This document shows positions 12,001-36,484 of a DNA stretch of 64,000 nucleotides, piece after piece. The notes under the pieces are model-generated. The model ran no database searches and had not been told where the DNA came from. It saw only the letters and a list, made by a program, of their open reading frames with translations. The position numbers and the translations under genes were made by a program. Source of the stretch: an uncultured Planctomycetia bacterium. Its GTDB lineage: Bacteria; Omnitrophota; Gorgyraeia; Tantalellales; Tantalellaceae. The stretch lies in assembly GCA_964431495.1 (NCBI GenBank), contig CAYSJU010000001.1:31574-95573 (forward strand), read 5' to 3'. Positions within the stretch are counted from its first letter, which is position 1. The number at the start of each line of letters is the position of its first letter.

Positions 12001-15000
12001 AGCTCCGCCAGAGCCGGGGATTATCATGGTTGCCTCTGCCCGGGAATTACAGGGTCTTTCAGATGAGGATAAAAGGCAGCTGGCAAATGAATTGGATAAT
12101 CGGTTTGGCAAAGCAGGAGAAACCATAGCGGTGGCGTTTAACAGCTTGTCAGAGGGAGAGTTTGATGAGGATGAAGAGACCGCAAGATTCAGTTTTTCAG
12201 GATTAAGGGTCTTTGACAGGGCAAGCATGAGCAGCCTCCGCGCGGAAAGAGAATCCCTCCGGGACAGCACAGAGAAGGAAAAGCACGTGTTGACCCAGGA
12301 GAAACTGGAGAAGAAATTAGAGCTGTCCCCGGAGGACAAGGACGAAAAGGTCTTTATAAAAAAGGTCGGGACTTCCAATTTCATGGTGATTGTCGCGGAT
12401 GACGGCACTACCTATGTCCGGGATCTGGGGAAAGATGTATTACCACAGACGAAACGGGAGGTCGTGCGTGCCAATGCTGTTCTTTCAGGCAAAGACAGAG
12501 AGAGCAGAAAGGCCGGGCTCAGGGCGGACGAGTATATAGTGAATGAAAGTGGTGTTTTTGTGAGAATGGAAGGTGTTCCCGGCGCGCCGGGTTCGGACAA
12601 ACCGCCTGTTCCATTGTTTGATGTTCTAGTCGATATCAATCTGACCGGTAAAGAAGAGATCGGAGAAAGACTTCCTTTGACAAAGGAAACCGGCCGTCCG
12701 GAGATGAGAGGGGTCTGGTCCCAGACCCGTCGCCGCGGCAGAGGAGTTGGTAACGCCATAAAAGGCGTCTTTGTGAGATTCGGTAGAAGGGCATTAACAG
12801 CAAAAGAGTGGATAGATTACAGGGTCGATCTTGTCTATAGAAGTCATGGATTTTTCCGGTCCCTCCTGCCCGCTGTTCCCAAAGTAATAATAAGCAGATT
12901 TATTATAGGTATTCCCAAGTTCATGTTCAAGGATACACGCCGGCGTTTCGGTCTCTGGAGGGAAAGGAGGAAAGCGGCTTATAAACGAAAAGCAAGCAGG
13001 CTTGAGCAGAAGTGGAGAAGAGGCGAACTTTTCCACAGATTGGATTATAGACTGAACAAAATTAAAAAAGATCCCTCTGCCGGAAAGATCAAAAAGGGTT
13101 TTGCCAGCGTGGGATCATGGATACTCAGGGCAAGCTTTAAGAAGACTTATTACTGGATACGGACCGGCGCTGGTAATGCCTTTTTAGCAATAAGCATTGT
13201 TTTCGTGCTTCGCGTTGCTTTCTGGGAATTGCCAAAGGGCATATTGAAACTGATATTCGTCCTCCCTGTCAGGAAATTCAGGGGCTGGCTTAAGAAAAGA
13301 AAAGAGATGAAAGAACCCGAACTGGAGTCTGAAGATGTAATAAGATCCAGGCTGCCTCAAATTGTACAGGAAGGGACGATTACTGAAGAGCGGGCAGTTG
13401 AAGAAGCCCAAAAGCTTACCGGCGCGGAACTCCAGGTTCCGGAGACGCACTCGGTCAGGGTCAGGCGGATAGCGGAGTTACTGCAATACCTGTCTCAGGA
13501 AGGCCTGGACAGGTCTGATCCAGAATATGAGGCCGCCTGCAGGGAGATAGGGCAGATCCTTTTTGATATGGCCGAAGACGCTGAAAAGATCGGGACAGAT
13601 CTATGGAAAGAAAGGGCCAGGGAGCTGCGCCTGAACGCGTTCAATTATATGTCGATCGCGGCAGCGCTGGATAAAAAGGATATGACGGCAACAGCGCTTC
13701 TTGGCATTATTTTACATTCTATGGGAGATGATGGAAAGGCTAAGAAATTGCTGGAGAAAGCAGTGAAAAAAGGCGTTCCACAGGATGCGAACATGACCAT
13801 GGCGTGCGTTGTTCTCGGCAAGATGCTTGAGGATGAGGCGGACAAGAGTAAGGACAGGGAAGATTATAAAAAGGCCGCCAGGGTGTACCAGAAAGCAAGG
13901 ATGTCTGACGTGACACTCCTTGGAGAAGATATCTCCATAACCGAAGCAAAGGCGCGTTGTCTGGAAAATGCTAAAAAGAAGGCAAAAGAGGAGGAGAAGA
14001 AACCCTCAGCGGGGCAGCAGATGAAAAAGATGCTTGGTGAAAGCTTCAAGCTGAACAAGCTGATGGGAAGTAAACGCCAGAGGATAATTGCAGGGGTGTT
14101 AGCCGGGACAGTGGTCATTATTGCGATCTTCGCGCCCGGGCTTCTTCTGGCGGTTGCCAGCACCCTGGGTGGAGTTAAGTTGCCGGTTTTATCCTGGGGA
14201 TTGGCCCAGATAGCCTCCCCTCTGCTTATACTCGCGGAAGCCGGCGGAATAGTGGCAAAACTTTTTGCCCTCAGCAAGGTGGCCTTTAGTTTCACAATGA
14301 TAATCAGGTTGTCAACAGGAGCTGGTCGCAGGGTATATGGCATTTTCACCAATCCATTAGCCATAAGGCGCATGGTCCGGACTGAAAGACAAGCGATGAA
14401 GAGAGCTCCTGGCCAGGCTGAACCGCGCATAGGCCTTATTAAAGTCTATGAATCCATGGACAAAACTTCAAAAGCCGCAAGGCAGGTGAACAGGACCTCG
14501 AAGAAGATTAGAAAAGGAAAGATGTCTCCTGAAGAATCCGCGAAATTCATAGAATTTCTTTTTGAAAGAAGCAAGAAGGAAAAAGAGGAAAAAGAGGAGG
14601 AAGAAGAGATGGGATTCCCGGGGTTCCCGGGGACTCCCGGACTCGGAGCGGTAAGAAGAAAACCCAAAGCTGAGGAAATGAAAAAGGAAGAGGCGAGTAA
14701 GGAGGAAAAGCAGAGAGAAAAGGAAAGAGAGACCGCTGAATATCTTTTCCGGGCTGTATATGCCAGCGCGGAAACTCCTGAAGACCGCGCTAAAGCTTAC
14801 CTTCTCAGGGGAAGACTGGCGCTCAGGAGTGAACCGCCCGAAGTTGTGCGCATGAGGGACGGCCCTGAGGACTTTGTTGATATAGCTGTCTACTCCGCGG
14901 ATCAAATAGTTGACAGAGTGGATGAGCTGGAAAGTAAGAGCGCGGCGACAGCAGAGGAATCGCAGGAGCTGGAAAAGTTGAGGCCCTTTGTGACCGACGC

Positions 15001-18000
15001 GCTTCTTCTAAGGATGGAAGCCCTTCAGAAAAGATATGAAAAGAACAGGACCGAAGAGAACGGGCGGGAATTCTTAAATGTTTTGGAACAATTGAGAGTC
15101 TTGGCGGACCAGATGGATACAGAGCAGCTCGAAAGATTCCAGACCGCGGGGATAGACCATAAGCCTGATGAGAAGACGTCGGCGCGGAGTTACGCAAAAA
15201 GCGCGGAAGAAGCAACAAGTATCGAAGAAGCCCCCGCCATAGAGAAGAAAGAGCCTGCTGTCGAAGAGAAGCTGTTCACCGGGGACCAGGCAGACAGGGC
15301 TCAGCGGGAGATGCTGGAAGACAAGCTTAAACGTGAAAAGACCCTCCTAAGCGGCGAGAGACTGGACCTCGCGGAATTATACATGAAAGAAGGCCTGTAT
15401 TCCAGGGCTATCAGGCAGCTGAAAAAGATACCCCGCGGTGATGATAAAGCAGCATTAGTTGCCAGGATGATAGTGCTGGGGTGCTTAAAGATGAAAGAGG
15501 ATCCAAGATGGTTCCAGCGGCTTGGTCTTATCAGGAGGTTCTGGACCTTCAGGCGCGCCATAAACAGGCTTAGGGCATTAGGCGGAGAGAACACGGAATG
15601 GGCGGACTGGATAGCGAGCACATTATATAAAGTCAGACCTGCCGGGGCGGAAGAAGCGTTTGAGGCGATAGCTGCATCATATATGGCTGAACCAGCGAAT
15701 AATGATGAAAAAGTTAACAATGAACTCATTGAGTCCGGGTTGAAAGCAATAGTGGGCTCTAAAAGAAGAAAGGTAGAAGCATCCAGGGCTGTTGAGAACA
15801 TGCTTGCCCATGGATCCATACCGGATGAAAGAGGACCTTTCACGGAACTGGCCTCTGATAATACACGGAAGCTGAAAGAAACCGTTAAAAAGACGTCGAA
15901 AAAGAAGTTAAGAGCGCTTGTGCGGGACCTGTATTCTATCCGGAGAAAGAGGCTTGAAAGACTTGCAGCTATAGAAAGAAAACTCACTCCCGGCACTGAT
16001 CCCTATGAGAAGAACAGGGCAAAGCGGGACAGGCTTAGAAAGGAGAAAGAGAAAATAGACAGAGAGCTGGGCCCGATAGAACTTGATATTTTGAACAGGA
16101 CCGCGCTTCTTGTAGGAGCCAATAAGGAATCTCCGGGGGCAGTATCTGAGATCAGTGAACACGGAGAACTGAAATATTTTATCAGGGCTCTGGCAGGAGG
16201 TCATGAGCACGTCTCAGACTTAATGAAGAAACTTGATCATATTGAAGAAGGTGTGGGGAAAGATTTTCTGCATGTCCTTCTTGTTGACGCCTGGTTAGAA
16301 GATCGTTTCGGTCAGGCATATGACAATGACAAAAACAAGCCTTCCGGGGTGGTTGCCGACAGGGATCAGCTAATGATGCACTTTTCTGTCCTCTTATCCA
16401 TATATGGCCAGTCTGAAAACAAAGTATTGAGAGATATTATCAGAAGCGCTCTGGAAAACATATCCGGATATGACATCTACGGAACATGGGATGGAAGGAA
16501 GTTTGGACGTTCGCCGGTAGTCAGTGATGCCATTGAAAGTCTTGGTGAAGTCCAGGAAGAAGGGATCAAAGGACTTGTCGCTGAAATGAACGAAAAACAA
16601 GGGGCAAAGAATCTTAATGAAGGCCGCAGTCTTGAAAGTAAAGCGAAGGAGGAGAAGGACGCCCTGAAGAGATCCGGGTTAACAAATAAGGCAAAGCGGC
16701 AATTGGGCAGCGCTATGGTGCATTTAGAGAATTCCATGGAATATTACCGCGAAAGATTGGAGGAAAGGGGGATCGACAGGGACCAGAGGAAGAAAGCGCT
16801 TGAACCCATCCGCGGTTTGATAGAGGCGTGGTACGGGAGAGACGCGGCTAATGCCGTCATAAAGGTCATGGAGGAAGCGATTTCCGAAGAGGAAGACGAA
16901 GATGAGCTTATTAAAAGGATGGAGCCGGTCCTTGATAAGATCACTTTTGTGGGCACCGATAAAGACCTGGTCAAGAAACTATTGCCCGGCCTTTCGCTGA
17001 AGGATCTAATAACTCTTATGAATAATTGCGGAAACATTTTATCGTATGATGAAAAAATGACGCAGATACTGGCCAGGGGGGCGGGATATGACATGGAGGA
17101 ATGGGACATGGCTATCGACGCCGTAAAAGATCTCCTTGGAAATATTGATGTTGATGATCTTGTGAAAGCGCGTCTGGATGTTGATATCCGGATGAACGCT
17201 GTTCAGGTCCCGGTGCCCGGAGATGATCCCGAGATCCTTTCGGAATGGATAATTTTAATAGCCGGTCTTATCAAAAAGAAAAAAGAAACCGGATTAGACA
17301 CTACCAATGAGATGGAAACATATGAGGTCCTGAAAGAGAAGCTTATAACAGTCCTGAAGAAAAGGAGGGACAGAGAGGAGACGGATGAGATAAACGGGGC
17401 ACTCAGGGAGGCGGGAAGCCTTATAAGCGCCGCAGAAGCATATGAAGCGCTCGGGGAGTACGGCAAAGCGGAAGAGGCCCTCGGCAAAGCCAGGGACATG
17501 ATAAACGATCTCTTCGAGAGAAATATGCAGCTTCAATATGAAGGTGAAGAACTCCTGCCTGAAGAGGTGATGGAAAAGTGCAAGGACAAGGCAACGGAAC
17601 TGGCTGGAAAGTTAAAAGGAGTTTATTACAGACAGGGCAAATACTTTGACGCCATGATGACCGTTGCCAGGGGACAAAAACTCCTGGCGGAATATACTTT
17701 TACGGTTGACGGGGTGGAAAAGGAAGCTGACGCGCAGAGATACATCAATAAAGCCCGTGAAACCTTGAATAATGCCGACAGGTTGAATCCATATCAGCCG
17801 GATGTGAAGCTGGAGATGATGGAAGTTGACATGCTGCGGCTCACCATTGCCAGACGGGAAGTGGAAGAGGCGCAGAAAAAGGAAGACGAGGAAAAAGAGA
17901 AAAAGGAGGAGCTTGAGAAGAAGATCGAAGAATTAACGGAAAAACAGGAAAAACTTGAAGAGGATCTCGCTATTGTAAGAAACAGAGCCCAGGCGGAGGT

Positions 18001-21000
18001 TGTCCTTCTGGCTGCCAAGGGGATCACAGGTGATGAAAACGCTAGCCAGAATAAACGCCAGAAAAAGCTTGATGAAATAAAGAGACCGTTGACAGAGGTG
18101 TTAAAGGATATCGAATCCAGCAAAGAAGAGCTGGTTGATGTAGAAGCGGAACTGACTGATCTGGAAGAAAGGAGAGGATCGCAAGAGGGGCAAGAGAGAG
18201 ATACTATTGCCGTTCAGAGCACTGATATCGCATCCGCGGTCAACAGGGCTTTTGAATGTATTGTGGACGGTAAATATGATACCGATAACGATAATGTGAA
18301 AAAGGCCGTAGAATTCCTGTCCTCGCTTTCACCTTTTGAAGAACTGCCGCATGAGGCTCAGGATGCCATAGTATCGAATATAGCGCTTTTACAGCGATAT
18401 GAAAGGGCATTGGAAATATCCGATAAAGCCGAGGGTGTTAAAAGACGGGCGTTCATCACCCGGCTTTTACTGGACTTACATTTCAAGGGAGACCATGACA
18501 TGCTAATGGGAAAGGCAAAGGTTGAGTTCATGGGGAACAAACCTTCTGGAACACTGATAGCTCTTGAACAGATCGACGGGGGATACGAAGGTCTGGGAGA
18601 GAAGATAGAAGTCACTGAATTTTTGGATTATATATCGGAAAAGATGCCCGAAGAGGGTCGCGGTGAACTTATAAACACGCTTTACGGGCTTCTCGAAACT
18701 GTAGACGGGACCCAGGACCCGGTCCTGAGAGCTGGTATTACGCGGAACATCTATAACTTGATTGATTTGGAAACGGATCAAGATCTGACCAGTGAAGAAA
18801 ATTTTACGGAAGAAGGGACCTTTAAAGATGAAAAACGTGAAATAATAATAAAGAAAAGTCTTACTGAATTGCTCAAGGAAAAAGAAATAAATGAAGCGAT
18901 CGCGGGAACAGAGGGGTTCCTGGAGGATCTGTTGTCAATATTTGAGACACTGAAGAAAGATGAAAAAGACTGGAAACAGATGGGCTGGCAGGACCAGATA
19001 GAGTTTCTGATGGATTTCTTTGTTGAGAAGGAGCAGCCCGAAGACCTGGTCGAAAAGATGGAACAGGCGAACAGAATGAAATTGTATGATGTCATGGAGA
19101 GAACGGAGGATGTCGAGCGACGAAAGGCGGCGATAGAGCAGATCCTCAGGCAGGAGGTCGACGTATTACCGGAGTCGAGGAATAACGATTTTATCAAGGG
19201 AAAAGCTTACGAACTTATGTCTCTTGATAAGGAATCCGCGCTGGCCGGTTATTTCCTGGGTGTTGCGGCGTATCAAAGCGGCAGAAGGACAAAGGAGGGT
19301 GAAGCAAAAAGACAGGAGGGCTATTCCCGCGCTGATGCTATTGAGCGGCTGAAGAAGTATCTGGAGAAAAATAAGGATGACGAGCAGGCGCTTCTTTTCC
19401 TCGCGGACATTTATGAAGCGAGGCACGATGAGATGTTCGCGGAAAACCGTAATAAAGAAGGATATGATCCGGAAGCGTCCCGGCATTTTGATGAACTTTC
19501 CGGTCATTTTATTAATAAATATGATGAAAAGATAAAAGAGAAAGATGAACCTGCCGCGGCAGAGGCCCTTTCCGAAGCGCTGAAATACATTGACCTGGCC
19601 ATAATATGCGATCCCCGCAACTCTGGTTTCAGGATCAAACAGGCAGGTATCTTCAAGAAAATGGGAGAGGATGAAGCGGCAGCGAGGGAAGCGGAGACCA
19701 TTATCGAAGTAAGCGTGGAAAAACCGCTGTTCGCGCCCATTGTTACCGTGGAAGACAAGAAAGAGGCAAATACATTGCTTGCGGATATAAGGATCAGTGA
19801 GGGAGATCTCCGCGGCGTTCAGGATATGTTAGAGGGGAGGATGAACCGGGTGACCAGGATGGGAAAAACAGCTCTGGCAGCCGCAGTGATATTAGCTGCC
19901 GCGGGTTTTCCTCTTGGCGGCCTGGTGCTTGGGAGCATTGCGGTCCTGGCGGCCATTATTTCTCATATTACGCTTATAAGGATCCCTGCCGGCATAGCTG
20001 CCCGGCTTGCGCTTATACACATGCGCCTGGGCGACAGAGGCAGGACCGGAAGATACATGAGGCGCATGCGCAGGAGAATAGAAAAACAGGGAGAAAAAGT
20101 AGACGCTGATACACTGGGTATTCTCGCAGATGAACTGCAGACGTGGGCTGGCGCACCTGAAAGGCCTGATAAAGACAGGTATGTAGTTTACGGCGAGATC
20201 GTGGACTTAAGAGAGATGAGGAAAGAGTCCCCGGCTGTAAGCGAGGATGAGGAAAACAAACGTATTGCCGGATTAAAGATGGAACAGGCCCGGATGGAAA
20301 GGCCTTTAGGCTTGCGGCGGAGGGAAAAACGAAGGCAGGATCATCTGGAAAACAGAAAAGGGCTGTTAAATGCGGCTAAAGAAGCGGATCCCGACCTGTC
20401 TGATGAAGCTGATCAGATGCTGATGGCTATAAACAACAAGGAGATCGAACGGCTCGAACGCCAGCAGAGGCGTTTTCAGAGGGTAAGGAACAGGCGGTTT
20501 GTCAGAAGGTTTTTCCATGATGTAGCCGAAAACATTATTCCGCTTTACCTGGATAATGCCGGATTACTTGTTGAGCTGTTCGAGAAAGAAAGCGATCCTG
20601 CCAGTCTTAGCGATCTCAGGGGACAGGCATACGATGCTCTGACCTTTGCAAGGGAGATCGCTGAAAGGGACAGGAAAGATTTGCCGGAAGAGCATGGAAA
20701 ATTAATGGCCAGGATATTTGTCAGCCTGGGAGACGAGAACAGGGGAAGACGCGAGTATGATACCGCGCTTTCAGATTATGATCTGGCCATTGAGCAGGAT
20801 GATAATAATGCAAAAGCCCATCTAGGGATAGCTCTTGCACTTAAGGAACAGGGCGCTGATCCGGAGCTTATCGCGGAGCATCTCGATAAAGCCCTTGAGC
20901 TTGAACCTTCTCTTGACGAACCCGGGGCCGAGAATTTTGAGGGTTTAGTTGAACTTTATAACAGCCTTGGAAAGCATGACATGGCGGAGGCCGCGGCAGA

Positions 21001-24000
21001 AAGAATAGAGGCAAGATTTTTAAAGGCGAAGAAAGAAGAGTTGGGAAAAAAGGCTAAGCAGGCCCGTAAGAAATCCGAAGCGCCGCAATTAGAGGATGTT
21101 GTCCAGACCGGTGTTGAAATAGAAAGATTGAGGAAAGAGATAGAGGAGAAGGAAGAGATTGTTGCAGCATTGCCGGACGGGGACAAGGGAGAGCCTTATT
21201 ATACATATGCTGAAAATGATCTCGAGCTGGATAAAGCCGAGTTGAAAGCAAGAGAAGAAGATCTGGGAAATAACATGACCAGGTTCAAAGAACTGGTGAA
21301 TAAGGGAGAGGTATTTAACGCGGTGATCGGCAATATGAGGGGACAGCCGCTGGATGAAGCGATGGAGCAGCTGAGTGTATTTCATGATCTATTGAAAAAA
21401 CAGAACCTTCTTTCCGCTAAAAATATTTCCGATCCCGTTGACCTCGCCCTTGCTGAACGGTATGAACAAAAAGGTGATCTTGAAAAGGCAGAGGAACATC
21501 TCAAACCTGTTCTGGAAGCGGTCCCGTCCACTCTCGGTCATGTAAAAGCCAATTTAGTGATAAAAGCGTATCTGCTTCATGCCAAAGTGCTTGTCCGGAC
21601 AGATAAGGAGACCAGATTTGAGGATGCTGTTGATTCTCTATCCCGTGCCGCCGGATGGATTTCTGGATTAAACGAAAACTTCAAGGACAGGCGCCTGGTC
21701 AGTGACGCTTTTGACTCGTTTAAGGATGTTCTCAGGTCTCTGGAAGAGGCTGGATTATCGTTTGATGTATACATGAAGTATAGAGATAACCTTTTTGATA
21801 TTTTCGAGCAACTCTCTGTGTTGGGAGAAGACGCCGATGCCGCTCGTCTGGCTGCCGATGCCGCATTAAAGAATATCACTGACAGGTCCAGGGGCTTTAT
21901 AGGAAATGCATTATTTGATAAGAGAATAAAGGATGTTTTAAAGGCGCCTTTCCTTCAGGCAATATTAGATGCGATCCCAAGGGATAGAACCGTCTTGAAC
22001 AAGTTGCAAGGGCTTCAAGAACACCTGGAAATGGTATTGGACTCAAGGGACAATGATCTCAGGGTAAGGGCTAATCTGATCATGGGGTTGCTGACAGGCA
22101 GGGGCAGAAAAGCGAGGAATTTGATCAAAGAAGCAGTCACAGCAGATGAAAGCCTGAAGAATACCGCGCTGGTGGTTCGCGGTCTCGCCAGGACTTATAT
22201 CCTTTATTTCCCGAGGAACATCGCGTTAAGATCGCGCGCGAGAAAAATGGAGAAGCAGACCGCGGGTGAATTTGTGAGAAGGGGGAATAACGACTTTGAT
22301 AAAGAGAAACACCATGGAGCTATAAGGAATTATGAAAAGGCAATAGACCTGGATTCCTCCCTGAAAGAAAATAAAGACATAAAGGAAAAGCTTTCAAAGG
22401 CATATGAGGAAGATAAAGGGACCTTGATGAGCAGGTTCAGGAGACTTTTCTGGAGGAAAGAGAAGAAACTTTTACTGGGAACGGATCTACTCCGCAAGGC
22501 GCTCGAATTCGCCACGGATGAAGACAGGAAACCGGCTGTAAGGAATAGTCTTATTTCAAATCTGACTGCGCTTTCCACCCTGATGACAACCCGTTTCGTG
22601 AACATGAGATCTGCCGAACAGAGGAAGAAATGGCAGGATTTTCAAGCACGCATGTCTGATATAAATACTGAAATAGGAAAATTGCACGCGGATAACATGA
22701 TCTTACATCAGGAGAAGAAACATTCCGCGGAGGCTGAAGCGTCTTTCAACAATGCAAAAGGCGCCCTTACCATGGCTGTCAAGTTTAATCCCGAAAACAT
22801 GGAAGCGAGAAATGGGCTCGAGAGGCTCGGCGAAGAGGTCCCGGCTGAGGAAACTGCCGAACAGCTGATCCGGAAAGCCAGGGACAAGGTCAAAGAGGGA
22901 GAATTTGAAGAAGCGCTTTCTTTGCTGGATGAAGCTGTGGAAAAGGACAAAGACAAGGAGAGTGAAGTAAAAGATGATAAGGGCAACATCGAAGAGGTAA
23001 ATAAGATCACAGACGCCATATTGGATTATTTTATGAGAAAGGCGTACATTGCTGAATATGCCGGCCTGAGCGATACCAATGACCCGGATGGGAGCAAGAG
23101 AAAAGGTATCCAGAACAGGTTCATGCGTGAATTGTCCGGAAATTTTCAGAATAGACAGGAGACTGGTTCGAATATCTTTGAAGAATGGTTCAGGTTAAGT
23201 GACAGGGAGGATGTTACTCGCGGATCCGAGTTGAGACAATTCGCGGATATGTCCATACGCGGCGCCGGAGAAGAAAAGCCGGCAATAAAACCGGGGATCA
23301 GAGACATGTTCTTCCACCGCGGACTTATTATGGCGGAAAGGCTTGTTGGAGAGAGAAACACCGCCAAGGCCTTACACCTTCTCGCTTTGCTGCGGGGGAT
23401 AAGAACATCGAAGAAAGCGCAATTACTCGCAGCAACGTGCAATATCATGCGTCTTGGCGATCAGGAAAAGAAGCCCCTGCGCGATCTTATCAGCGAAGCG
23501 GAGCAGGAATTCATATCCGTTGTGGTAAGCACCCCGGAGGATAAAGCGGAAAAATCCCGTCTGGCCCTGGAGGTAGGCCGGTTATTTTCCGGACGGGCCA
23601 GTTCATTATGGCGTGATAATCAAAAAACAGATAGGTCACAGGCGCGGCAGGAAGCCGAGGAATATTACAAGGCCGCCCTTAAGCTTGATCCGTCAAACTC
23701 GGAAGCATTGCAGGGACTGGTGAATTTCTACGGAAGAGAGAGAGTGGAAGAACTTTTCAGTGATGATACCAGACCATTTGTGATCGAAGCCATAATCCGA
23801 TCAGAGGATATGGCTGCTCTTGGGGGTCTATTCAATACGACTTTTCAGGGTAAGGACGGTATGCTTGATGAAGGCCGGGTTGAAGTTGCGCGGGCATTAT
23901 TCGCGAGGATCGATGAACTGAAGGATACCGAAGGACAGGAGATCATCCGCCTTATGAAAGCCGCATTGCCGGTGATGCGCGGGCTAAAACTGCAGGATCC

Positions 24001-26374
24001 CGTATTACAGCTTCAGATCATGACATTTGTTGATACGGTAAATGACATTAAAAATACTCTGAAAATGGATTCCGTGTTCAATCTTAATCCTGATATAGAC
24101 GTGACCTTTGGACTTGCCGCCGCATACCTTGACATGATCTCCGGTAACGGGGCAGGAGCAACCGCTGTTTTGCGTTCCATTAATCCAAGAAGTGACGAGG
24201 ACAGGGCAGAATTCGTCTTTGCCAAGATGCGTATGCAATTGGCGGCTGGTGAAACGGATAGCGCTGAATATTCCCTGAAAATAATGGGAGCATTGGATCC
24301 TGGCATGACGCCTTCCGCAAGGATGTTGATCGCTGAAAAATATCTGGAACTCGGAAAGAAGGCTCGAGGAGGTAGCAGGGAACAAAGACAATATCTCGAA
24401 AGAGCCGTGTCTTTATGGCCTAAATTCCTGGAAGCACATGTGGCTCTTGCGATCTTATACGCCAAAGTAAAAGACACGGCAGCAAGGCGGGAGGAGGACC
24501 GGTTCATCGCCCGTATAAGAACGGATATTGCTGAGGAAAGAAATTTAAGCCCCGTGCAAATGAGATGGGACAGGGGAGAAGAGGCAAGGAAGCACCTGAT
24601 AAAAGCTCCGGTTCTTGAAAGGCTGACATATTTCGGTATACCGGTAGGGGTAACGTTATTAGCGGGATTCAGGGGCATCAGCAGCATATGGGCGCTTCTC
24701 GGAATTGTCCCCATGGGGACGATATTCGGAGTATTTTTTGCGATAATGCAGATACCGTTTATTGTGAAGTTTATACAGGAACATAGGGGTGAAAGAAGAA
24801 TGGCATGGATGGTATCTCTTGGAAGCTTTGCCCTGCCGTTACTGGTGTTATTCGCTCCTTTTGATCTGGCCCCTGCGGCCCTTATCGGAATAGCAATTGG
24901 TTTTCACGCGTTTGCCAATTTAACGGTATTCACATTGAACACGATTACAAGGAGACAGATCTTCAATTACGCGACAAAAGAGGTCGGGTTGCCCGGACTG
25001 CTTCCCGAGATGCCGCTCCCGCCTCCGGTAGAAGCTGTTCCTTCCGTGGCTGTTGTAGGTGTTGTGGAAGGTGATGAAGATGAGATGGAACGGTTGAGTG
25101 GGGAATATCCTGATATTCGATTTATTTCGATAAAAGAAGGAGGCGAAGCGGGAATAAAACAAATGGAAACTGTAATGGGTCCGGTAACAAGGTTCCTTGT
25201 TGATATGACCCCCGAAGATGTGCTTGAGAATATGGACAAGATTGTTGAACAGGCCCAGAGGCAGTCTTTTGTGGACATGTATCCGTATCTGGCGGGTCTG
25301 GATGCCCGGTCCATCAGGAACCTGGACAAGACGGACCTTGAAGGGGCGATGCAGGTAGTAAGTGTGTCAATGCCGCAAGAAAGACCCATGGAAGAAGGTG
25401 TCCTGGGATCGCTTTATGCGGCTTACATCTCCGGCGTGGCGCCTGATACGGCTCTGCCCGCGGGTATTGCCCCGGGAGATCAGGAAGCCTGGGTCAGGGA
25501 GAACGTCCGGGCGCTTAAAGATTATGAAGAGACTCAAAGCATGGGATTGCCGGTTGAAGCGCCTGAAAAGAAACTGCTTGCCTTACACGCCGGATTGGAT
25601 GATTTTCTGCGGGATAGATCCAGGGATGATATAAACAGGATACTCATGCGCCATGAAGGCATCGCCATGGCTCAAGGCATGGAGGATGAAGTCGTGGGAC
25701 TCATGTCTGAATTCAGAAATGCCGGTCTCATCCCAAAAGAGGCGCCTCAGTCCATAGTGATCGATGCCAGGAAAGATTCGGGGTTTAGACTTGAATACAT
25801 GGTGCCGGCTCTCCTGGATTTTGCCGGGAAAGCCCCGCTTTTGCATATAACCGTGATAACAGAACCCGGTGTTGATCTGACCGAATTCATCCCCGGGGCA
25901 GAGATGCCGGATAACCTTTCCCAGATGGACAGGATTCTGGAAGAGGTGCCTTTGTCGGAGCAGGTCAAGGGGCACCTGGAAGATATGGGCAAGGATATAC
26001 CTTTGCCTTCGGTTTCAATAGCCACAGGTGAATTTATGACGGACAAGATCATAATCAATGTAAAAGATGCCGGGACCCAAGGCGCGAACTTTGTCATAGC
26101 CGGTGAAGAGATGCTGGCGCCTGATGACGAGGCCGCGAAAAGGATACACCGCCTTATACCCGCGATAGCGGCCATGAACCTTTTAAGGCGGGCGGCGGAT
26201 GAACGCAAGGCTCCCAGCATAGTGGCTATGGGATGCGGAGAAGATACGATAAACGATATCATGACGCGCCTCAAGGACGTTCTTCATACACTGGTCAGGA
26301 TAGCGAGACTTGATATCGGTGAGGCTGTAAGAGCGTTTATCGACAGCTTGCATGAAGTTGCGGCTGCCGTATAA
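2..26374 (+). CDS. Giant multi-domain membrane-associated protein, truncated at the 5' window edge (8,791 codons in window). Contains a SecA-like motor, TPR/helical arrays, charged spacers, TM clusters and a C-terminal alpha/beta domain.
   Basis: One reading frame with no stop from nt 2 to TAA at 26372-26374. The frame is open upstream of the first ATG (nt 32), and that ATG has no Shine-Dalgarno, so the true start probably lies before the window. Recognisable motifs are listed in the sub-features. Confidence 0.9.
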   Translation, partial: TFDEASLRADMIQEENKDADFERGGGIVTFDEDHVPAAIAEEEGLALPLSEDADLAQIENDLKRTAFQLRAGEIESDSVEDIYGCYTGRNVEAPQKSGIVNKLIEKALSLRTPGVYLIRAPPNLFFAVRVNRHGEVDLFKIDTLFSGSNDEIQGKFAGIIEEAGREAAAVRKSGEKVDAGRQQFGFEVINTLYGHDNAGSVIAVISHHITDIFKKDQDISGKELVRELADRMNGVFGIENGFRTVVTASHVREQDAESRAETTGRDFASTMLERANELLEARDVVLEGSRIEGNLIKDDTDYSAPEVEKAIRENISLEETYQMERGEEVLARADARLMKKAEGFLAAVEERISAKEPVWAYEERGGGISDRGARFTHEEINSGIRGLFDRFRRVFGVFVLEDMGLVIGNDRLGMPVYDLEGLRGLLESRTEQRKELSDVEIRLVNGRLVVIADNIYTHCGRRSGQVWIDRKDLKAKRVELKSKHGLADGESEGMALEALIRHEQGERDSLLAQARQHFLRETGRDTASDKEIVEWIEDEENVSDQKFNIWLKTAHEDAKKTEKRYVRVQLARVPGYDELKEMPVEVMGRIIVRLEKAGNIEGAGSIVDTLLELHESGELRGAWTEADISRFNSVQRRLAYQIEVMRQLKALPDLDRLEEMSINEFGALIGRLERQRDFEAAEMVAGVLLGLHDRGELRGEWVEADIRLYRNRKKRFGYRNKLELARAAVGRVITRARHEEFHEKQGYREILLEIGKEIGAPFDGERYDFRTALREAEDGRIRIERADGTITEIYETEDGILVIMDTRIDVGHAGRTQLAVYANHTGNQAQAAHELAELRGWIDFAVVQGLAAKDDILTRRVDLGGLLMGYMRDEANFYRAMDQVERLHQEGLRAEAEAQGLRYMAPAEITGALVTFESGVDYDFIIASTLGDEAELEGMGLRVQESSDELRGALTRARGLLRAVNELTEETDKLAKADELVEVARLVRDRAARALENVSEYAAFAARIAEATAGDRVSAIARVADELARNAQSYIAFDHEYVQEAEESARAGNIDSLVRAVSNLISGVTFSSGAIRVALAVTEAESAGEVAAIVLRAAANKAVDHDFTEAGRYARAAAEIAGEGYIAEKADELATVAAEAQSELVDELAGKAVGAGNIEKAAQMGNIIRFDPAIIGKMRVARAIKEEVEEEAPPKAEEEVPVEEEVEEEVPAEEEVAPEEEGKSQLESADRDIRIAVEQAKDGDAVAAEKSVKDAFEAWSSAAENFLKAATAAKERNNANAARAYTVRAAEVWAVAAEKLKEASSETWDVFHERFSGATPVTRSVIDRIGRFAYNASDYQARALGKALGFFEQIAAERAETKDAVSAVKFARRATDICVSLATQEKFAVEFIAFLVKDIDISAEMAATINEQAQSVKAAAAKAAEDAAKYWEDIDNAAEKIFFRRDAMEARAAAEKTDALVRKVADFAEKTVAAKDRKAKEEERDRTRIAVAREKADKALGEIEGLIAEAQAKADEAAIKAAAKIGAPEEAVADATAGVYSEGIAQVNTFKFLIKGSAEIAAKAATVKEAEDAAKAAAKSVELAVKFNNVAESVDDAKTLFEKVVALAQAAADFVKIAELPMVTVCAELAAEFAQATGVSVDGSENHVSGVGDLLNNIAMYARQGDAEKAERNAVAAVRRLRKAAAGKEAERAREKAPPVEGVGAEKAREEAARKEAEAEAARAKAEKATEEIEKAWEEADWKQAEAEAAWMKAEAETLREEAFRKGEEAEPARAEADRKGTEAEAAGEEADRKEEEARKAREEASRKEAESEALEEITRIFIDKTLNRANRISELSEIATRSEKVLLRRYARRALGRILDRKYTDIDFVLEIEPGTILSVYNGINRESREPGAVEDIRILDAIMESCFLEDRDSDLFINALDITERNIETVCDILSDDITYLKTEIQTLGRAPVIDLEAQTEAVNDLRKQIAAKKAVLDSMVKRQFQLREYRDLREEDRFRDFLQSLDMEALSAEGITDKAQFIDYLRVKALEQGYTQNEITSLLENHAIMGSENLVEFIATLGNLAEENSAIQYFILALSASGENYLKDLGIGNKADLITYLQEKAMERGDSGTDITTLMESYIESGSESLEELLSMLNAFPGARDTYVLRGVQTLIEGRLSDIISLETQNLESLNTRCIDLRNSIPWGEVPFAPGQDTMEFEWEGSKVLVTRKQVDEYRERIKSSGAKTVERQVTQLEVAVATISSRARNILRRTGNATFRRRIVNKAEGSVKEVLKEWHKYLEGKISERDLDILERAMDKFKLVDADRTISMFTQATNSLLADVNTISRAEGISEFTSWLLFKMNEILDPASESGVVKEISDVEKGAVRKTVQDRFNELVEELLGAEVDPSIIGRIRENTDEIKDEIDGDNRIGRLTVLTKEMTDTIKSIAYGKQGMELMEAVLRSKIGDNVTKENIGRVMTALGITGKELEMCQVHILEKEKIEDRFERFAEFILQLMFTGAVSADRLREVFGQEAADGVIKEASKGIMLGERLREKVKELEGRLQKNFQDKNTRMEFAAAYQLGAILTFGNAPFVEQIITGLDMADDFFVDMATGAGKTLAYPLANMLGRCRGLKNIHFVTHDYYTERDYRETHFLYQVMGYNVSYQRGDQRDLGEAAKRLEDNDVVIMSYGTCSFTCLDGVRDRTRPESAKWFDLLAKTRLTFDECDVAPRLADFIMAAAQNKLTVREFMRYHVLMETSKRLYDEGGIKEIYSLLEDNITRVKQGETDETEQLEKLGSMLGIEKEDVEFDSAGDLVIKSVTDGKEYTLPAVRRKAELIDVNGTKFGVKYSDRDGFVISRMEWVGHADLSEGEIKKRIEDAGKKGRRLSRRQAIEELSKEATERSGVKIDLTSRTANAGEETRSRVEGIMKEMSFSLSEMFPELAEKTPTWDEFLDTVKAMYVDDEGVDYILKYRPKLGAQPIKVLEEEGVLKMTQEDKIIKEPEFKVEVQHNGSYKVVYKGIFIALLNDEFFKGKGDDEMVLAMGDKRYAVAKGDTGGYVFTESGMEVVLLDRETGREQGGQRKDRFHTLYELKHQKRPGDRPEARGDNKSTEYLSFTDVARFAHSYGGASGSVSTAADVMLKIFEKAKGVKKLTPQFAKKGAEKMPVFVTSNKAQWKVTLNRLKEIYTASPGASVIVYFDDIKQAREFEEELGKMIKETGLEKDAGGEIKVNVFGEEGIKEVELVEKAGKPNTITLADSKLGRATNVELSEKVGFVVRNSAEALEEFLTGKKRGETGRDTLTIEEKGEISNTVARLVELLAGMEYIEEEDRWDEGLFFKTDVAERAKKREEIENFLRDLGAGPGSMVWQTIKHKYFDGLFLVDLSPDGSLQGMVQKFGRNRRQGDIGFVDSFYSLQEGSKFFRLVEEAYNPSHNLHRTERERKEGLVKFNEFLDRKNRIGELEEHVFDENGHYLEGIDEGIFMEWCELQQYFMAFMRDVRVEHQKRADEQRVRKNESDKKTQKYLDLVRDLPVDIYEKMDKNPEEARRIVEDRLTAIQDEHFTLDKVDDDGWLDLEEFLGVVEEHFHINLEDKARFSQARLKERNVKELLFLREQFRRALMDVILSVGSVTGRAGEPVALNTGNIFYTFMLDPTTGDLEVNSVQQLLPDGNRQEILEKRDDGTIKIGEAVFTSGFMEDGSFALFDISGRPVNRFFIEPYVDRTGAEAGFRITQAGAFVSAIKALYVEGLDRLKMKLIREARYKGGEVTETDISETGLAAAAIEVSRERYIDKRDKTAEYDSPEAQPIIRDATETIHGSLDKLGKRLAEQDKAVDELAVENLEKEKQWDSIKLARSVRRSTRKADEEVASRVRDAGVITVQEEAQEARLDETAAITAQSIYSVSRTNELVAALEGITGVEIREGEVKRRDERDRKDMQMEYTREQEERIEAALEYQERISSQHRQKLERGEGSVIGDRVFVTVDKPEGQTISDAEVEQCFSVGAAPSGAGGAEAPPEPGIIMVASARELQGLSDEDKRQLANELDNRFGKAGETIAVAFNSLSEGEFDEDEETARFSFSGLRVFDRASMSSLRAERESLRDSTEKEKHVLTQEKLEKKLELSPEDKDEKVFIKKVGTSNFMVIVADDGTTYVRDLGKDVLPQTKREVVRANAVLSGKDRESRKAGLRADEYIVNESGVFVRMEGVPGAPGSDKPPVPLFDVLVDINLTGKEEIGERLPLTKETGRPEMRGVWSQTRRRGRGVGNAIKGVFVRFGRRALTAKEWIDYRVDLVYRSHGFFRSLLPAVPKVIISRFIIGIPKFMFKDTRRRFGLWRERRKAAYKRKASRLEQKWRRGELFHRLDYRLNKIKKDPSAGKIKKGFASVGSWILRASFKKTYYWIRTGAGNAFLAISIVFVLRVAFWELPKGILKLIFVLPVRKFRGWLKKRKEMKEPELESEDVIRSRLPQIVQEGTITEERAVEEAQKLTGAELQVPETHSVRVRRIAELLQYLSQEGLDRSDPEYEAACREIGQILFDMAEDAEKIGTDLWKERARELRLNAFNYMSIAAALDKKDMTATALLGIILHSMGDDGKAKKLLEKAVKKGVPQDANMTMACVVLGKMLEDEADKSKDREDYKKAARVYQKARMSDVTLLGEDISITEAKARCLENAKKKAKEEEKKPSAGQQMKKMLGESFKLNKLMGSKRQRIIAGVLAGTVVIIAIFAPGLLLAVASTLGGVKLPVLSWGLAQIASPLLILAEAGGIVAKLFALSKVAFSFTMIIRLSTGAGRRVYGIFTNPLAIRRMVRTERQAMKRAPGQAEPRIGLIKVYESMDKTSKAARQVNRTSKKIRKGKMSPEESAKFIEFLFERSKKEKEEKEEEEEMGFPGFPGTPGLGAVRRKPKAEEMKKEEASKEEKQREKERETAEYLFRAVYASAETPEDRAKAYLLRGRLALRSEPPEVVRMRDGPEDFVDIAVYSADQIVDRVDELESKSAATAEESQELEKLRPFVTDALLLRMEALQKRYEKNRTEENGREFLNVLEQLRVLADQMDTEQLERFQTAGIDHKPDEKTSARSYAKSAEEATSIEEAPAIEKKEPAVEEKLFTGDQADRAQREMLEDKLKREKTLLSGERLDLAELYMKEGLYSRAIRQLKKIPRGDDKAALVARMIVLGCLKMKEDPRWFQRLGLIRRFWTFRRAINRLRALGGENTEWADWIASTLYKVRPAGAEEAFEAIAASYMAEPANNDEKVNNELIESGLKAIVGSKRRKVEASRAVENMLAHGSIPDERGPFTELASDNTRKLKETVKKTSKKKLRALVRDLYSIRRKRLERLAAIERKLTPGTDPYEKNRAKRDRLRKEKEKIDRELGPIELDILNRTALLVGANKESPGAVSEISEHGELKYFIRALAGGHEHVSDLMKKLDHIEEGVGKDFLHVLLVDAWLEDRFGQAYDNDKNKPSGVVADRDQLMMHFSVLLSIYGQSENKVLRDIIRSALENISGYDIYGTWDGRKFGRSPVVSDAIESLGEVQEEGIKGLVAEMNEKQGAKNLNEGRSLESKAKEEKDALKRSGLTNKAKRQLGSAMVHLENSMEYYRERLEERGIDRDQRKKALEPIRGLIEAWYGRDAANAVIKVMEEAISEEEDEDELIKRMEPVLDKITFVGTDKDLVKKLLPGLSLKDLITLMNNCGNILSYDEKMTQILARGAGYDMEEWDMAIDAVKDLLGNIDVDDLVKARLDVDIRMNAVQVPVPGDDPEILSEWIILIAGLIKKKKETGLDTTNEMETYEVLKEKLITVLKKRRDREETDEINGALREAGSLISAAEAYEALGEYGKAEEALGKARDMINDLFERNMQLQYEGEELLPEEVMEKCKDKATELAGKLKGVYYRQGKYFDAMMTVARGQKLLAEYTFTVDGVEKEADAQRYINKARETLNNADRLNPYQPDVKLEMMEVDMLRLTIARREVEEAQKKEDEEKEKKEELEKKIEELTEKQEKLEEDLAIVRNRAQAEVVLLAAKGITGDENASQNKRQKKLDEIKRPLTEVLKDIESSKEELVDVEAELTDLEERRGSQEGQERDTIAVQSTDIASAVNRAFECIVDGKYDTDNDNVKKAVEFLSSLSPFEELPHEAQDAIVSNIALLQRYERALEISDKAEGVKRRAFITRLLLDLHFKGDHDMLMGKAKVEFMGNKPSGTLIALEQIDGGYEGLGEKIEVTEFLDYISEKMPEEGRGELINTLYGLLETVDGTQDPVLRAGITRNIYNLIDLETDQDLTSEENFTEEGTFKDEKREIIIKKSLTELLKEKEINEAIAGTEGFLEDLLSIFETLKKDEKDWKQMGWQDQIEFLMDFFVEKEQPEDLVEKMEQANRMKLYDVMERTEDVERRKAAIEQILRQEVDVLPESRNNDFIKGKAYELMSLDKESALAGYFLGVAAYQSGRRTKEGEAKRQEGYSRADAIERLKKYLEKNKDDEQALLFLADIYEARHDEMFAENRNKEGYDPEASRHFDELSGHFINKYDEKIKEKDEPAAAEALSEALKYIDLAIICDPRNSGFRIKQAGIFKKMGEDEAAAREAETIIEVSVEKPLFAPIVTVEDKKEANTLLADIRISEGDLRGVQDMLEGRMNRVTRMGKTALAAAVILAAAGFPLGGLVLGSIAVLAAIISHITLIRIPAGIAARLALIHMRLGDRGRTGRYMRRMRRRIEKQGEKVDADTLGILADELQTWAGAPERPDKDRYVVYGEIVDLREMRKESPAVSEDEENKRIAGLKMEQARMERPLGLRRREKRRQDHLENRKGLLNAAKEADPDLSDEADQMLMAINNKEIERLERQQRRFQRVRNRRFVRRFFHDVAENIIPLYLDNAGLLVELFEKESDPASLSDLRGQAYDALTFAREIAERDRKDLPEEHGKLMARIFVSLGDENRGRREYDTALSDYDLAIEQDDNNAKAHLGIALALKEQGADPELIAEHLDKALELEPSLDEPGAENFEGLVELYNSLGKHDMAEAAAERIEARFLKAKKEELGKKAKQARKKSEAPQLEDVVQTGVEIERLRKEIEEKEEIVAALPDGDKGEPYYTYAENDLELDKAELKAREEDLGNNMTRFKELVNKGEVFNAVIGNMRGQPLDEAMEQLSVFHDLLKKQNLLSAKNISDPVDLALAERYEQKGDLEKAEEHLKPVLEAVPSTLGHVKANLVIKAYLLHAKVLVRTDKETRFEDAVDSLSRAAGWISGLNENFKDRRLVSDAFDSFKDVLRSLEEAGLSFDVYMKYRDNLFDIFEQLSVLGEDADAARLAADAALKNITDRSRGFIGNALFDKRIKDVLKAPFLQAILDAIPRDRTVLNKLQGLQEHLEMVLDSRDNDLRVRANLIMGLLTGRGRKARNLIKEAVTADESLKNTALVVRGLARTYILYFPRNIALRSRARKMEKQTAGEFVRRGNNDFDKEKHHGAIRNYEKAIDLDSSLKENKDIKEKLSKAYEEDKGTLMSRFRRLFWRKEKKLLLGTDLLRKALEFATDEDRKPAVRNSLISNLTALSTLMTTRFVNMRSAEQRKKWQDFQARMSDINTEIGKLHADNMILHQEKKHSAEAEASFNNAKGALTMAVKFNPENMEARNGLERLGEEVPAEETAEQLIRKARDKVKEGEFEEALSLLDEAVEKDKDKESEVKDDKGNIEEVNKITDAILDYFMRKAYIAEYAGLSDTNDPDGSKRKGIQNRFMRELSGNFQNRQETGSNIFEEWFRLSDREDVTRGSELRQFADMSIRGAGEEKPAIKPGIRDMFFHRGLIMAERLVGERNTAKALHLLALLRGIRTSKKAQLLAATCNIMRLGDQEKKPLRDLISEAEQEFISVVVSTPEDKAEKSRLALEVGRLFSGRASSLWRDNQKTDRSQARQEAEEYYKAALKLDPSNSEALQGLVNFYGRERVEELFSDDTRPFVIEAIIRSEDMAALGGLFNTTFQGKDGMLDEGRVEVARALFARIDELKDTEGQEIIRLMKAALPVMRGLKLQDPVLQLQIMTFVDTVNDIKNTLKMDSVFNLNPDIDVTFGLAAAYLDMISGNGAGATAVLRSINPRSDEDRAEFVFAKMRMQLAAGETDSAEYSLKIMGALDPGMTPSARMLIAEKYLELGKKARGGSREQRQYLERAVSLWPKFLEAHVALAILYAKVKDTAARREEDRFIARIRTDIAEERNLSPVQMRWDRGEEARKHLIKAPVLERLTYFGIPVGVTLLAGFRGISSIWALLGIVPMGTIFGVFFAIMQIPFIVKFIQEHRGERRMAWMVSLGSFALPLLVLFAPFDLAPAALIGIAIGFHAFANLTVFTLNTITRRQIFNYATKEVGLPGLLPEMPLPPPVEAVPSVAVVGVVEGDEDEMERLSGEYPDIRFISIKEGGEAGIKQMETVMGPVTRFLVDMTPEDVLENMDKIVEQAQRQSFVDMYPYLAGLDARSIRNLDKTDLEGAMQVVSVSMPQERPMEEGVLGSLYAAYISGVAPDTALPAGIAPGDQEAWVRENVRALKDYEETQSMGLPVEAPEKKLLALHAGLDDFLRDRSRDDINRILMRHEGIAMAQGMEDEVVGLMSEFRNAGLIPKEAPQSIVIDARKDSGFRLEYMVPALLDFAGKAPLLHITVITEPGVDLTEFIPGAEMPDNLSQMDRILEEVPLSEQVKGHLEDMGKDIPLPSVSIATGEFMTDKIIINVKDAGTQGANFVIAGEEMLAPDDEAAKRIHRLIPAIAAMNLLRRAADERKAPSIVAMGCGEDTINDIMTRLKDVLHTLVRIARLDIGEAVRAFIDSLHEVAAAV
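7684..10560 (+). other. SecA-like ATPase motor region (NBD1 - PPXD-like insert - NBD2 - helical scaffold) inside the giant ORF
   Basis: Motifs appear in SecA order. They are: FVEQIITGLDMADDFFVDMATGAGKT (Walker A, nt ~7750-7815); VTHDYYTERDY; SYGTCSFTCLDGVRD; LTFDECD (DExD box, nt ~8129-8143); VVLLDRETGREQGGQRKDRFHTLYELKH (nt ~9163-9250); SFTDVARFAHSYGGASGS; TLADSKLGRATNVEL (nt ~9731-9775); GRNRRQGDIGFVDSFYSLQE (nt ~10156-10220). Confidence 0.8.
12848..13270 (+). other. Hydrophobic/basic cluster 1 of the giant protein (putative membrane-inserting or amphipathic segments within an Arg/Lys-rich stretch)
   Basis: FFRSLLPAVPKVIISRFIIGIPKFMF and AFLAISIVFVLRVAFWELPKGILKLIFVLPV sit inside a very basic region (RRRGRG..., RRRFGLWRERRKAAYKRK, KKRKEMK) spanning nt ~12720-13320. 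Confidence 0.55.
14084..14330 (+). other. TM cluster 2 of the giant protein (about 3 hydrophobic helices)
   Basis: IIAGVLAGTVVIIAIFAPGLLLAVASTLGGVKLPVLSWGLAQIASPLLILAEAGGIVAKLFALSKVAFSFTMIIRL. Confidence 0.7.
19859..20020 (+). other. TM cluster 3 of the giant protein (about 2 hydrophobic helices)
   Basis: MGKTALAAAVILAAAGFPLGGLVLGSIAVLAAIISHITLIRIPAGIAARLALIH, followed by an Arg-rich stretch (RLGDRGRTGRYMRRMRRRIEK). Confidence 0.7.
24623..24945 (+). other. TM cluster 4 of the giant protein (about 4 hydrophobic helices)
   Basis: LTYFGIPVGVTLLAGFRGISSIWALLGIVPMGTIFGVFFAIMQIPFIVKFIQEHRGERRMAWMVSLGSFALPLLVLFAPFDLAPAALIGIAIGFHAFANLTVFTL. Confidence 0.7.
25027..26371 (+). other. C-terminal alpha/beta domain(s) of the giant protein. 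It ends in a motif shared with the 1,932-aa and 988-aa proteins.
   Basis: Short hydrophobic strands alternate with helices (VAVVGVVEG, IRFISIKE, LLHITVITE, KIIINVKD, FVIAGEE, SIVAMGCGE). The terminal sequence LKDVLHTLVRIARLDIGEAVRAFIDSLHEVAAAV aligns with the C-termini of the CDSs ending at 42283 and 45499. Confidence 0.6.
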
Positions 26375-26486: not shown

Positions 26487-26558
26487 AGATCCCGCGTTCC
26501 CAGGGCAAGTTTACATTTATCAATAACTGTGATATAGTTGTGCCCGGGGATACAGCAT

Positions 26559-28213: not shown

Positions 28214-28268
28214 AACATTTTCGGTTTAAAAATTAAAATAAATCAACATCAAAGCAGGTGTGAACAGT

Positions 28269-36204: not shown

Positions 36205-36484
36205 AGTATAGCATATTTTTATGGAAACGATAAGGACTGAAAAGTGGGGTTTTCCCAATTCAGGAAAAATGGGGGGACTCTCAGTTCACACCAGGTGGTA
36301 ATACTCGTTGTATGTTAAGGTTTAAAAAATTAAGAATATTTTTTAGCTGTTTCCCCGGCCGGCATAGGTATACTTTATAGTGGGAGATTGAGACCGATCT
36401 TTCTGGCTTATGTTCTGAATAATTATCATAATTAATTTGATTTTAATACTCAAAACATTTAAAGAGTATAAACGGAGAAACAAC

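Follow-up and report, generated by a model that had tools for sequence, protein, structure and literature searches.

The window analysed here is a 64,000-nucleotide stretch of contig CAYSJU010000001.1 (GenBank assembly GCA_964431495.1). Its first part is occupied by a single giant open reading frame (ORF), whose product, at least 8,780 residues long, carries a divergent SecA-like ATPase, tetratricopeptide repeats (TPRs) and four widely spaced hydrophobic clusters, and the present analysis concerns how this chain is placed relative to the membrane. The ORF and the parts of its product are laid out as follows, with nucleotides (nt) counted along the window and residues along the visible translation.

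32–26374, forward strand: giant ORF of at least 8,780 residues, a continuous translation without a stop, open at the 5' edge of the window
7604–10231, forward strand: divergent SecA-like DEAD motor, residues ~2525–3400, recognised by Pfam SecA_DEAD, by phmmer against SecA chains of the Protein Data Bank (PDB) and by its motifs
12720–13320, forward strand: basic region with cluster 1, 25% Lys+Arg, from composition and a hydrophobicity scan
13328–13996, forward strand: TPR domain between clusters 1 and 2, residues 4433–4655, from AlphaFold2 (AF2) and Foldseek
14075–14311, forward strand: cluster 2, residues 4682–4760, the strongest anchor, with 19-residue Kyte-Doolittle means (KD19) of up to 2.54
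19859–20020, forward strand: cluster 3, residues 6610–6663, from the hydrophobicity scan and alignment
20753–23731, forward strand: TPR-matched part of the block between clusters 3 and 4, with Pfam TPR matches at residues 6908–6941, 7138–7167 and 7873–7900
24623–24949, forward strand: cluster 4, a predicted four-helix membrane bundle, residues 8198–8306, with the basic central loop KFIQEHRGERRMAW, from the hydrophobicity scan and AF2
24989–26371, forward strand: C-terminal alpha/beta domain, residues ~8320–8780, conserved in the homologues P0001–P0004

No in-frame stop codon lies within nt 2–31, and the true start of the giant gene is therefore probably upstream, outside the window. The gene itself is real and collinear with a rare Omnitrophota protein family of 7–8 thousand residues (kaa). 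A homology search with residues 4200–8780 returned four proteins of 7,055–7,628 residues at 22–30% identity, three of which cover 78–95% of the query (the fourth, P0004, covers 23%), and in a MAFFT alignment the window protein and its homologues run in parallel from residue ~2400 to the C-terminus. An exhaustive profile search with the region of clusters 1 and 2 against 1.84 billion cluster representatives (50% identity) yielded only about 10 family members, and a profile scan of genome contigs with an alignment of the SecA region gave one true relative (L001, whose giant gene, 6152–22081, is referred to as L001g) and one actinobacterial SecA-like match. The visible N-terminal ~2,250 residues are lineage-specific, partly rich in Ala, Glu and Lys, and unrelated to the N-termini of the relatives; the N-terminal 400 residues have no relatives in metagenome contigs, and an exact 60-mer sought there to extend the gene at its 5' end had 0 matches. 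The host is an Omnitrophota bacterium, since the giant protein has its closest homologue under the name Candidatus Omnitrophota and the relatives of a neighbouring 1,948-residue ORF that carry a name are all Omnitrophota or Omnitrophica, at no more than 58% identity (among the 120 matches listed of 179); a single related locus carries the label Planctomycetia. On its coding strand the giant gene shows a strong purine excess (GC skew 0.17–0.27, or 0.19–0.27 with an AT skew of 0.14–0.26 over window positions 1–24000) that falls after the stop codon, recurs in kind at 38000–42000, in the second half of the 1,948-residue ORF, and gives way elsewhere to a GC skew of ~0.07–0.13; we ascribe it to a composition rich in Glu, Lys, Arg and Ala.

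In the motor, residues 2527–2683 match the Pfam SecA_DEAD model (PF07517; E 5e-13), and phmmer against PDB SecA chains aligns residues 2525–2643 with nucleotide-binding domain 1 (NBD1; E. coli SecA residues 31–149) and residues 3043–3248 with the region running into NBD2 (E. coli SecA 323–508), a large insertion separating the two. The translation contains the Walker A motif DMATGAGKT as well as DECD, GASGSV, LGRATNV and the SecA-type FGRNRRQGD. NCBIfam SecA models score 33–34 bits against cut-offs of 862–930. Judged from its sequence, the motor is thus SecA-derived but not a SecA, and the embedded SecA-like motor of the preliminary description of this DNA holds good as a genuine homologue of SecA NBD1 and NBD2. 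The actinobacterial match found alongside L001 (L002, a Mycolicibacterium sp. metagenome-assembled genome, NZ_JACJWN010000004.1) covers the first 145 residues of the SecA-like query, with 27% identity in the best segment, in agreement with a published note of SecA_DEAD domains in some giant actinobacterial proteins.

Pfam and NCBIfam scans of the giant protein gave nothing beyond SecA_DEAD and TPR, and Pfam at E values up to 1 found no match for the C-terminal domain or for residues 3401–4230. TPR_19, TPR_14 and TPR_2 lie above cut-off in the C-terminal half, and the 3,400-residue blocks are mostly without a TPR match of their own. Residues 4433–4655 form the only high-confidence part of the AF2 models (predicted local distance difference test, pLDDT, blocks of 64–93), and Foldseek matches this part to consensus TPR proteins and to MamA. 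The C-terminal domain is modelled by AF2 as alternating strands and helices at low confidence. A profile of cluster 4 plus this domain retrieved only one additional protein, P0005 (ENA), a stand-alone 442-residue homologue of the C-terminal domain with 28% identity over 66% of the query.

Transmembrane (TM)-grade hydrophobicity, defined as a KD19 of at least 1.6, is confined to four places in the giant protein, one in each of the clusters that the preliminary description had reported: residues 4378–4401 (nt 13163–13234) in cluster 1, with a weaker segment at 4274–4299; residues 4682–4758 (nt 14075–14305) in cluster 2; residues 6610–6657 (nt 19859–20002) in cluster 3; and residues 8216–8302 (nt 24677–24937) in cluster 4, with a weaker onset at 8198. 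The shortest soluble gap, between clusters 1 and 2, measures ~0.8 kb (271 residues) and not the 1.8 kb given there. A single TM-grade window is not significant because one is expected by chance at such a protein length: 99.8% of residue shuffles hold at least one. This chance expectation is one ground for a reading that takes the clusters for helices buried in a soluble alpha-solenoid and the protein for one without any membrane association. The observed pattern, however, far exceeds that of the shuffles, with 94 TM-grade windows against a shuffle mean of 19.8, and five stretches of 21 residues or more that lack Asp, Glu, Lys and Arg (37, 31, 31, 28 and 21 residues, all in clusters 2–4) against 0.51 expected. 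Means of at least 1.2 over 40 residues occur only within the four clusters and reach 1.96, the shuffle mean maximum being 1.24. Clusters 2–4 also combine an Eisenberg mean hydrophobicity of 0.83–0.88 with a low hydrophobic moment, which likewise argues against buried helices.

The four clusters differ in strength and make-up. Cluster 1 is much weaker than the other three: residues 4274–4299 are marginal (KD19 1.47) and residues 4378–4413 contain one TM-grade part. It sits in the Arg/Lys-rich stretch noted previously, where Lys and Arg account for 56 of the 220 residues at 4220–4439 (25%) and Asp and Glu for 17 (8%), against 15% and 18% protein-wide, and its internal loop carries 28 Lys/Arg in 89 residues. 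In-plane amphipathic helices were considered for cluster 1 and set aside, the hydrophobic-moment scan showing no strong amphipathicity, and the term retained is interfacial or re-entrant. Cluster 2 spans ~76 residues that could hold 2–4 helices, with a conserved F-A-P-G turn behind the first. In cluster 3, a TPR-like helix pair (AARLALIHMRLGDRGRTGRYMRRMRRRIEK) comes after an uncharged run of 37 residues, TALAAAVILAAAGFPLGGLVLGSIAVLAAIISHITLI; the basic segment RYMRRMRRRIEK stands directly after the cluster, as previously stated, and aligns with the second helix of the TPR-like motif. No tandem repeat or duplication was found behind cluster 3 at the DNA level. In cluster 4, AF2 places helices at residues 8194–8222, 8228–8250, 8255–8274 and 8281–8316 with low pLDDT. 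The models of both anchor regions have mean pLDDT values of 45 and 53 and were relied on solely for counting helices and for the TPR domain.

Mapping the TM-grade segments of 14 homologous sequences onto the window protein shows that three of the four clusters are shared. Cluster 2 occupies the equivalent alignment position in 12 of the 12 homologues covering the region, and cluster 4 is kept in all four homologues having a C-terminus. Two hydrophobic segments at positions equivalent to cluster 1 are found in P0001, P0002, P0006 and L001g, and the cluster is kept in most homologues, being weak or absent in P0007 and P0008. Cluster 3, by contrast, is mostly a hydrophobic insertion of ~30 residues particular to the window protein: at its site the homologues have a TPR-like motif preceded by no more than a short patch of GILFIFGG type, with no TM-grade segment in P0001, P0002, P0004, P0011 or L001g and a borderline value of 1.61 in P0003. 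The possibility raised earlier that homologues might lack the clusters is therefore borne out for cluster 3 but not for clusters 1, 2 and 4. Within the clusters hydrophobicity is conserved by position although the homologues are just 22–30% identical.

These comparisons bear directly on the soluble reading. It draws some support from the marginal hydrophobicity of cluster 1, from the short patches beside a TPR-like motif that replace cluster 3 in homologues, and from AF2 models that do not resolve the clusters; yet hydrophobicity that is kept while the sequence diverges, the long uncharged runs and the Lys/Arg collars on the flanks all oppose it, and we regard a wholly soluble protein as most improbable. 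Membrane-embedded clusters, as first proposed, agree with the uncharged runs of 21–37 residues, the position-conserved hydrophobicity and the Lys/Arg-rich flanks, and embedding of the chain at multiple points is supported. The window protein belongs to a rare, collinear subfamily of 7–9 kaa with fixed anchor positions.

To which side each block then falls was read from the positive-inside rule, helix counts and an evolutionary argument. All eight 15-residue flanks of the four clusters carry a net charge of +2 to +4, against a mean net charge in the giant protein of -0.48 per 15 residues and a value of +2 reached in just 18% of windows, in line with the positive residues noted earlier beside the clusters. 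For cluster 2, each flank in 11 family members holds 1–5 Lys/Arg and 0–2 Asp/Glu, and the internal loops hold 0–2 Lys/Arg. In cluster 4, with its four segments, the flanks and the central loop (KFIQEHRGERR) together hold eight Lys/Arg and loops 1 and 3 none, a ratio of 8:0, and the corresponding ratios are 7:0 in P0001, 7:0 in P0002 and 7:1 in P0003. Because of the four segments and this bias, both ends of cluster 4 most likely lie inside; the low-confidence AF2 model also has four helices. Cluster 3, being present in one lineage only, must be topologically neutral and cannot change downstream sidedness, since with an odd number of crossings there, ~2,100 conserved residues downstream would end up on the opposite side from that in every relative. 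For cluster 1, both outer flanks are basic and nothing in the region looks translocated; together with the 28 Lys/Arg of its loop, this fits interfacial or re-entrant binding better than a crossing. A P-loop ATPase requires ATP, that is, the cytoplasm, and the SecA-like motor is accordingly placed there.

The same evidence weighs on the alternating topology put forward in the preliminary description, which would amount to an odd number of helices in each cluster, blocks of 270–1,850 residues that alternate between the cytoplasm and the periplasm or cell surface, and a SecA-like motor that helps to thread them. Net-positive flanks on both sides of all four clusters run counter to this arrangement, as do the conserved 8:0 bias of cluster 4, which favours both flanks inside, the lack of cluster 3 in relatives, which leaves no room for a flip there, and the extreme charge of the blocks (Asp, Glu, Lys and Arg make up 33.7% of the whole protein). 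The Lys/Arg enrichment on one side only that would mark an alternating polytopic protein is not seen, although the helix count of cluster 2 is ambiguous in this regard. Alternation gains from the N-terminal signal peptides of several homologues, by which part of the family's sequence would be exported, and from West-Roberts et al., whose predictions make much of the sequence in Omnitrophota giants extracellular and who propose SecA-like self-export; the same authors, however, call some TM-based localisations 'highly unlikely' and TM predictions at times unreliable (bioRxiv 10.1101/2023.11.21.568195). On balance, we consider alternating sidedness unlikely.

Instead, the flank charges, the pattern of cluster 4, the neutrality of cluster 3, the loop of cluster 1 and the need for ATP combine into one self-consistent, all-cytoplasmic model, and we infer, with somewhat better than even confidence, that the giant protein is a cytoplasmic scaffold tethered to the inner membrane by clusters that act as anchors with both ends inside. 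In this model, the lineage-specific ~2,250 residues would be followed by the SecA-like DEAD ATPase without scaffold or wing, and then by a conserved region ending in the basic cluster 1. Next would come the TPR domain, the cluster 2 anchor, ~3,400 partly TPR-matched residues, the cluster 4 bundle and the 460-residue alpha/beta domain, with cluster 3 as an extra hairpin inside the ~3,400-residue block in this lineage alone. Each cluster would enter and leave the membrane on the cytoplasmic side, by an even number of helices or a re-entrant hairpin, so that all large blocks would lie on the cytoplasmic face and the chain would be stapled to the membrane at three conserved points and one extra. 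Such anchors would expose just short loops outside and could be placed by ordinary co-translational insertion through the signal recognition particle, YidC and SecYEG. Hairpins of this kind make a dedicated insertion machine, which had been thought necessary, superfluous, and they need no second membrane, so that the earlier suggestion of a protein bridging two membranes finds no support. The scaffold may serve to position the SecA-like motor against the membrane, where it could possibly power the export of either a partner or an N-terminal module.

Several observations weigh against this model. A segmentation with 17-residue windows gives three cluster 2 segments in most homologues, in which case the side would flip at this point, as alternation requires, and the helix count of the cluster is ambiguous in any case (2–4). 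An argument from the length of cluster 2, comparing two with four helices across homologues, was abandoned as the pattern is too unclean to use. Next to loops of great length the positive-inside rule loses force, confidence in the AF2 models of the clusters is low, and the real N-terminus of the window protein probably lies outside the visible sequence.

The N-termini of the relatives pose a further difficulty. A classical signal peptide opens P0002, P0003 and L001g, and a hydrophobic segment opens P0007; in all four a conserved module of ~520 residues follows (the regions concerned are residues 1–2800 of P0002, 1–2980 of L001g and 1–750 of P0003). In P0003 a TM segment at residues 723–746 precedes the SecA-like ATPase and restores an inside location of the motor. 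P0002 and L001g have the signal peptide but no second TM segment ahead of the SecA-like domain; read literally, their motor would lie outside, and the topology of the family is not fully self-consistent under any simple model. These N-termini, the openness of the giant ORF at the window edge and published work favouring an extracellular role of Omnitrophota giants in attacking prey cell walls are what would commend a third topology, in which most or all of the protein is exported behind an N-terminal signal peptide and the clusters anchor or re-anchor a surface-exposed giant contacting prey or host cells. In the window, however, the first ~2,250 visible residues bear no relation to the relatives' N-termini, and the signal-peptide module sits on a separate ORF:

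36437–42283, forward strand: 1,948-residue ORF with a signal-peptide-like start and a ~520-residue domain, recognised by blastp to the relatives' N-terminal module

An extracytoplasmic ATPase would moreover have no ATP, the Pfam and NCBIfam scans show no carbohydrate-active, adhesin or peptidase domains, and no type II secretion or pilus genes are among the Pfam-scanned ORFs of the window (nt 26.5–62.6 kb). Wholesale export is, in our judgement, very unlikely.

The module heading this ORF matches those of P0001, P0002, P0003, P0007 and L001g in blastp with E values of 1e-63 to 1e-70 at 29–30% identity, and contains the motifs HIQDAHCNY, NLEGG and ITGGFHT; it is missing from the visible giant protein of the window. 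Pfam gave no match for the 1,948-residue ORF, nor for its N-terminal module at E values up to 1, and the two ORFs upstream of the L001 giant gene were likewise without a Pfam match. From its sequence the product may be a partner or a paralogue of the giant protein. A fusion/fission (Rosetta-stone) link between the two is suggestive only, and is weakened because the module forms an Omnitrophota-wide multi-copy family, mostly of ~900-residue proteins. Two members of this family in Ca. Omnitrophus magneticus are annotated as 'secreted' and 'membrane'. A more far-reaching proposal, which we rate as distinctly unlikely, is that the anchors and the SecA-like motor make up a self-contained, membrane-docked export platform acting in cis on the fused module in relatives and in trans on the 1,948-residue protein here; if true, it would be a SecA-derived motor bringing its own membrane tether and its own substrate.

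Directly downstream of the giant gene, on the forward strand, are two small TPR proteins, at 26538–27374 (278 residues) and 27384–28085 (233 residues), whose first 30 residues are strongly hydrophobic (KD19 2.19 and 2.49), as for a putative anchor or signal peptide; the giant protein, itself rich in TPRs, may have them as partners. An IS200-like ORF (Y1 transposase) at 28260–28931, forward strand, lies between the giant-gene cluster and glgP. A 988-residue ORF at 42533–45499, forward strand, combines an N-terminal hydrophobic segment and an HD domain with a weak MbnB/TglH/ChrH-type domain, a type involved in precursor modification of ribosomally synthesized and post-translationally modified peptides. 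The rest of the window is ordinary bacterial chromosome, encoding GlgP, UvrD, Era, MgtE, PurH, MnmE, FolE, AccA and others.

Giant bacterial proteins are almost wholly uncharacterised, and whether their site of action is the cell interior or the surface of prey or host depends on their membrane topology. According to West-Roberts et al., numerous TM regions are encoded by full-length Omnitrophota giant genes, most of which also specify divergent SecA DEAD domains that have neither scaffold nor wing; the motor, they suggest, may be anchored by neighbouring TM regions and may export the very giant that contains it, and they warn that TM-based localisations are unreliable (bioRxiv 10.1101/2023.11.21.568195). 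A 2026 preprint applied DeepTMHMM to 916 long Omnitrophota proteins and found TM helices or a signal peptide in 94%, with ~2% TM residues; 46% were classed as 'TM-only' and read as a cytoplasmic bulk anchored by helices, a class that we count in favour of the anchored cytoplasmic scaffold, and 20 proteins formed a PF07517 architecture group (10.64898/2026.06.07.730766). TM-studded SecA_DEAD giants, the idea of self-export and the anchored-cytoplasmic reading are thus already published, and the observation and the SecA idea of the preliminary description rediscover published features. We found no specific description of the rare 7–9 kaa collinear subfamily in the literature. It is small, collinear and simple, with one motor, three conserved anchors and TPRs, which makes it a tractable model for the anchoring of multi-kiloresidue chains, and, if the all-cytoplasmic model is correct, it argues against presuming that TM-studded giants are surface effectors.

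Compared with the published Omnitrophota SecA_DEAD giants, the window protein shares the Omnitrophota genome, the single very long ORF, the TPR content, the divergent SecA DEAD-like domain lacking scaffold and wing, and TM regions dispersed along the chain that amount to ~2% of residues, here in four clusters of which three are conserved. Its visible length of at least 8.8 kaa, in a frame open at the window edge, and the 7.0–7.6 kaa of its homologues compare with published thresholds of 10 kaa or 30 kaa. Unlike the described types, it lacks, in Pfam and NCBIfam scans, the glycosyl transferase, glycosyl hydrolase, peptidase, S-adenosylmethionine (SAM)-methylase and NUDIX domains of the Archaeovorin type, and likewise the dockerin domains that, with glycosyl-transferase, hydrolase, peptidase and methylase domains, mark out the Archaeovorin and Dockerin types. 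Type II secretion and type IV pilus genes are absent among the Pfam-scanned ORFs downstream (nt 26.5–62.6 kb), the upstream side lying outside the window. With SecA itself, the motor shares homologous NBD1 and NBD2 with Walker A, DExD and the SecA-type GRxxRQGD motif, and an insertion located where SecA has its preprotein cross-linking domain. In contrast to SecA, no helical scaffold, wing or C-terminal domains were detected, the alignment being limited to SecA 31–149 and 323–508, and the motor lies 2,500 residues inside a giant chain equipped with membrane anchors of its own.

As a general class, cytoplasmic scaffolds may be held to the membrane by hairpins or helix bundles whose two ends lie inside and whose outer loops are short. 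The window protein showed no sequence relationship to any named scaffold of this class. The proposed topology would resemble them in its even-numbered helix clusters, its basic collars on both sides and its soluble domains on one face, but would differ from them in the thousands of residues between anchors and in the several anchor modules carried by one chain.

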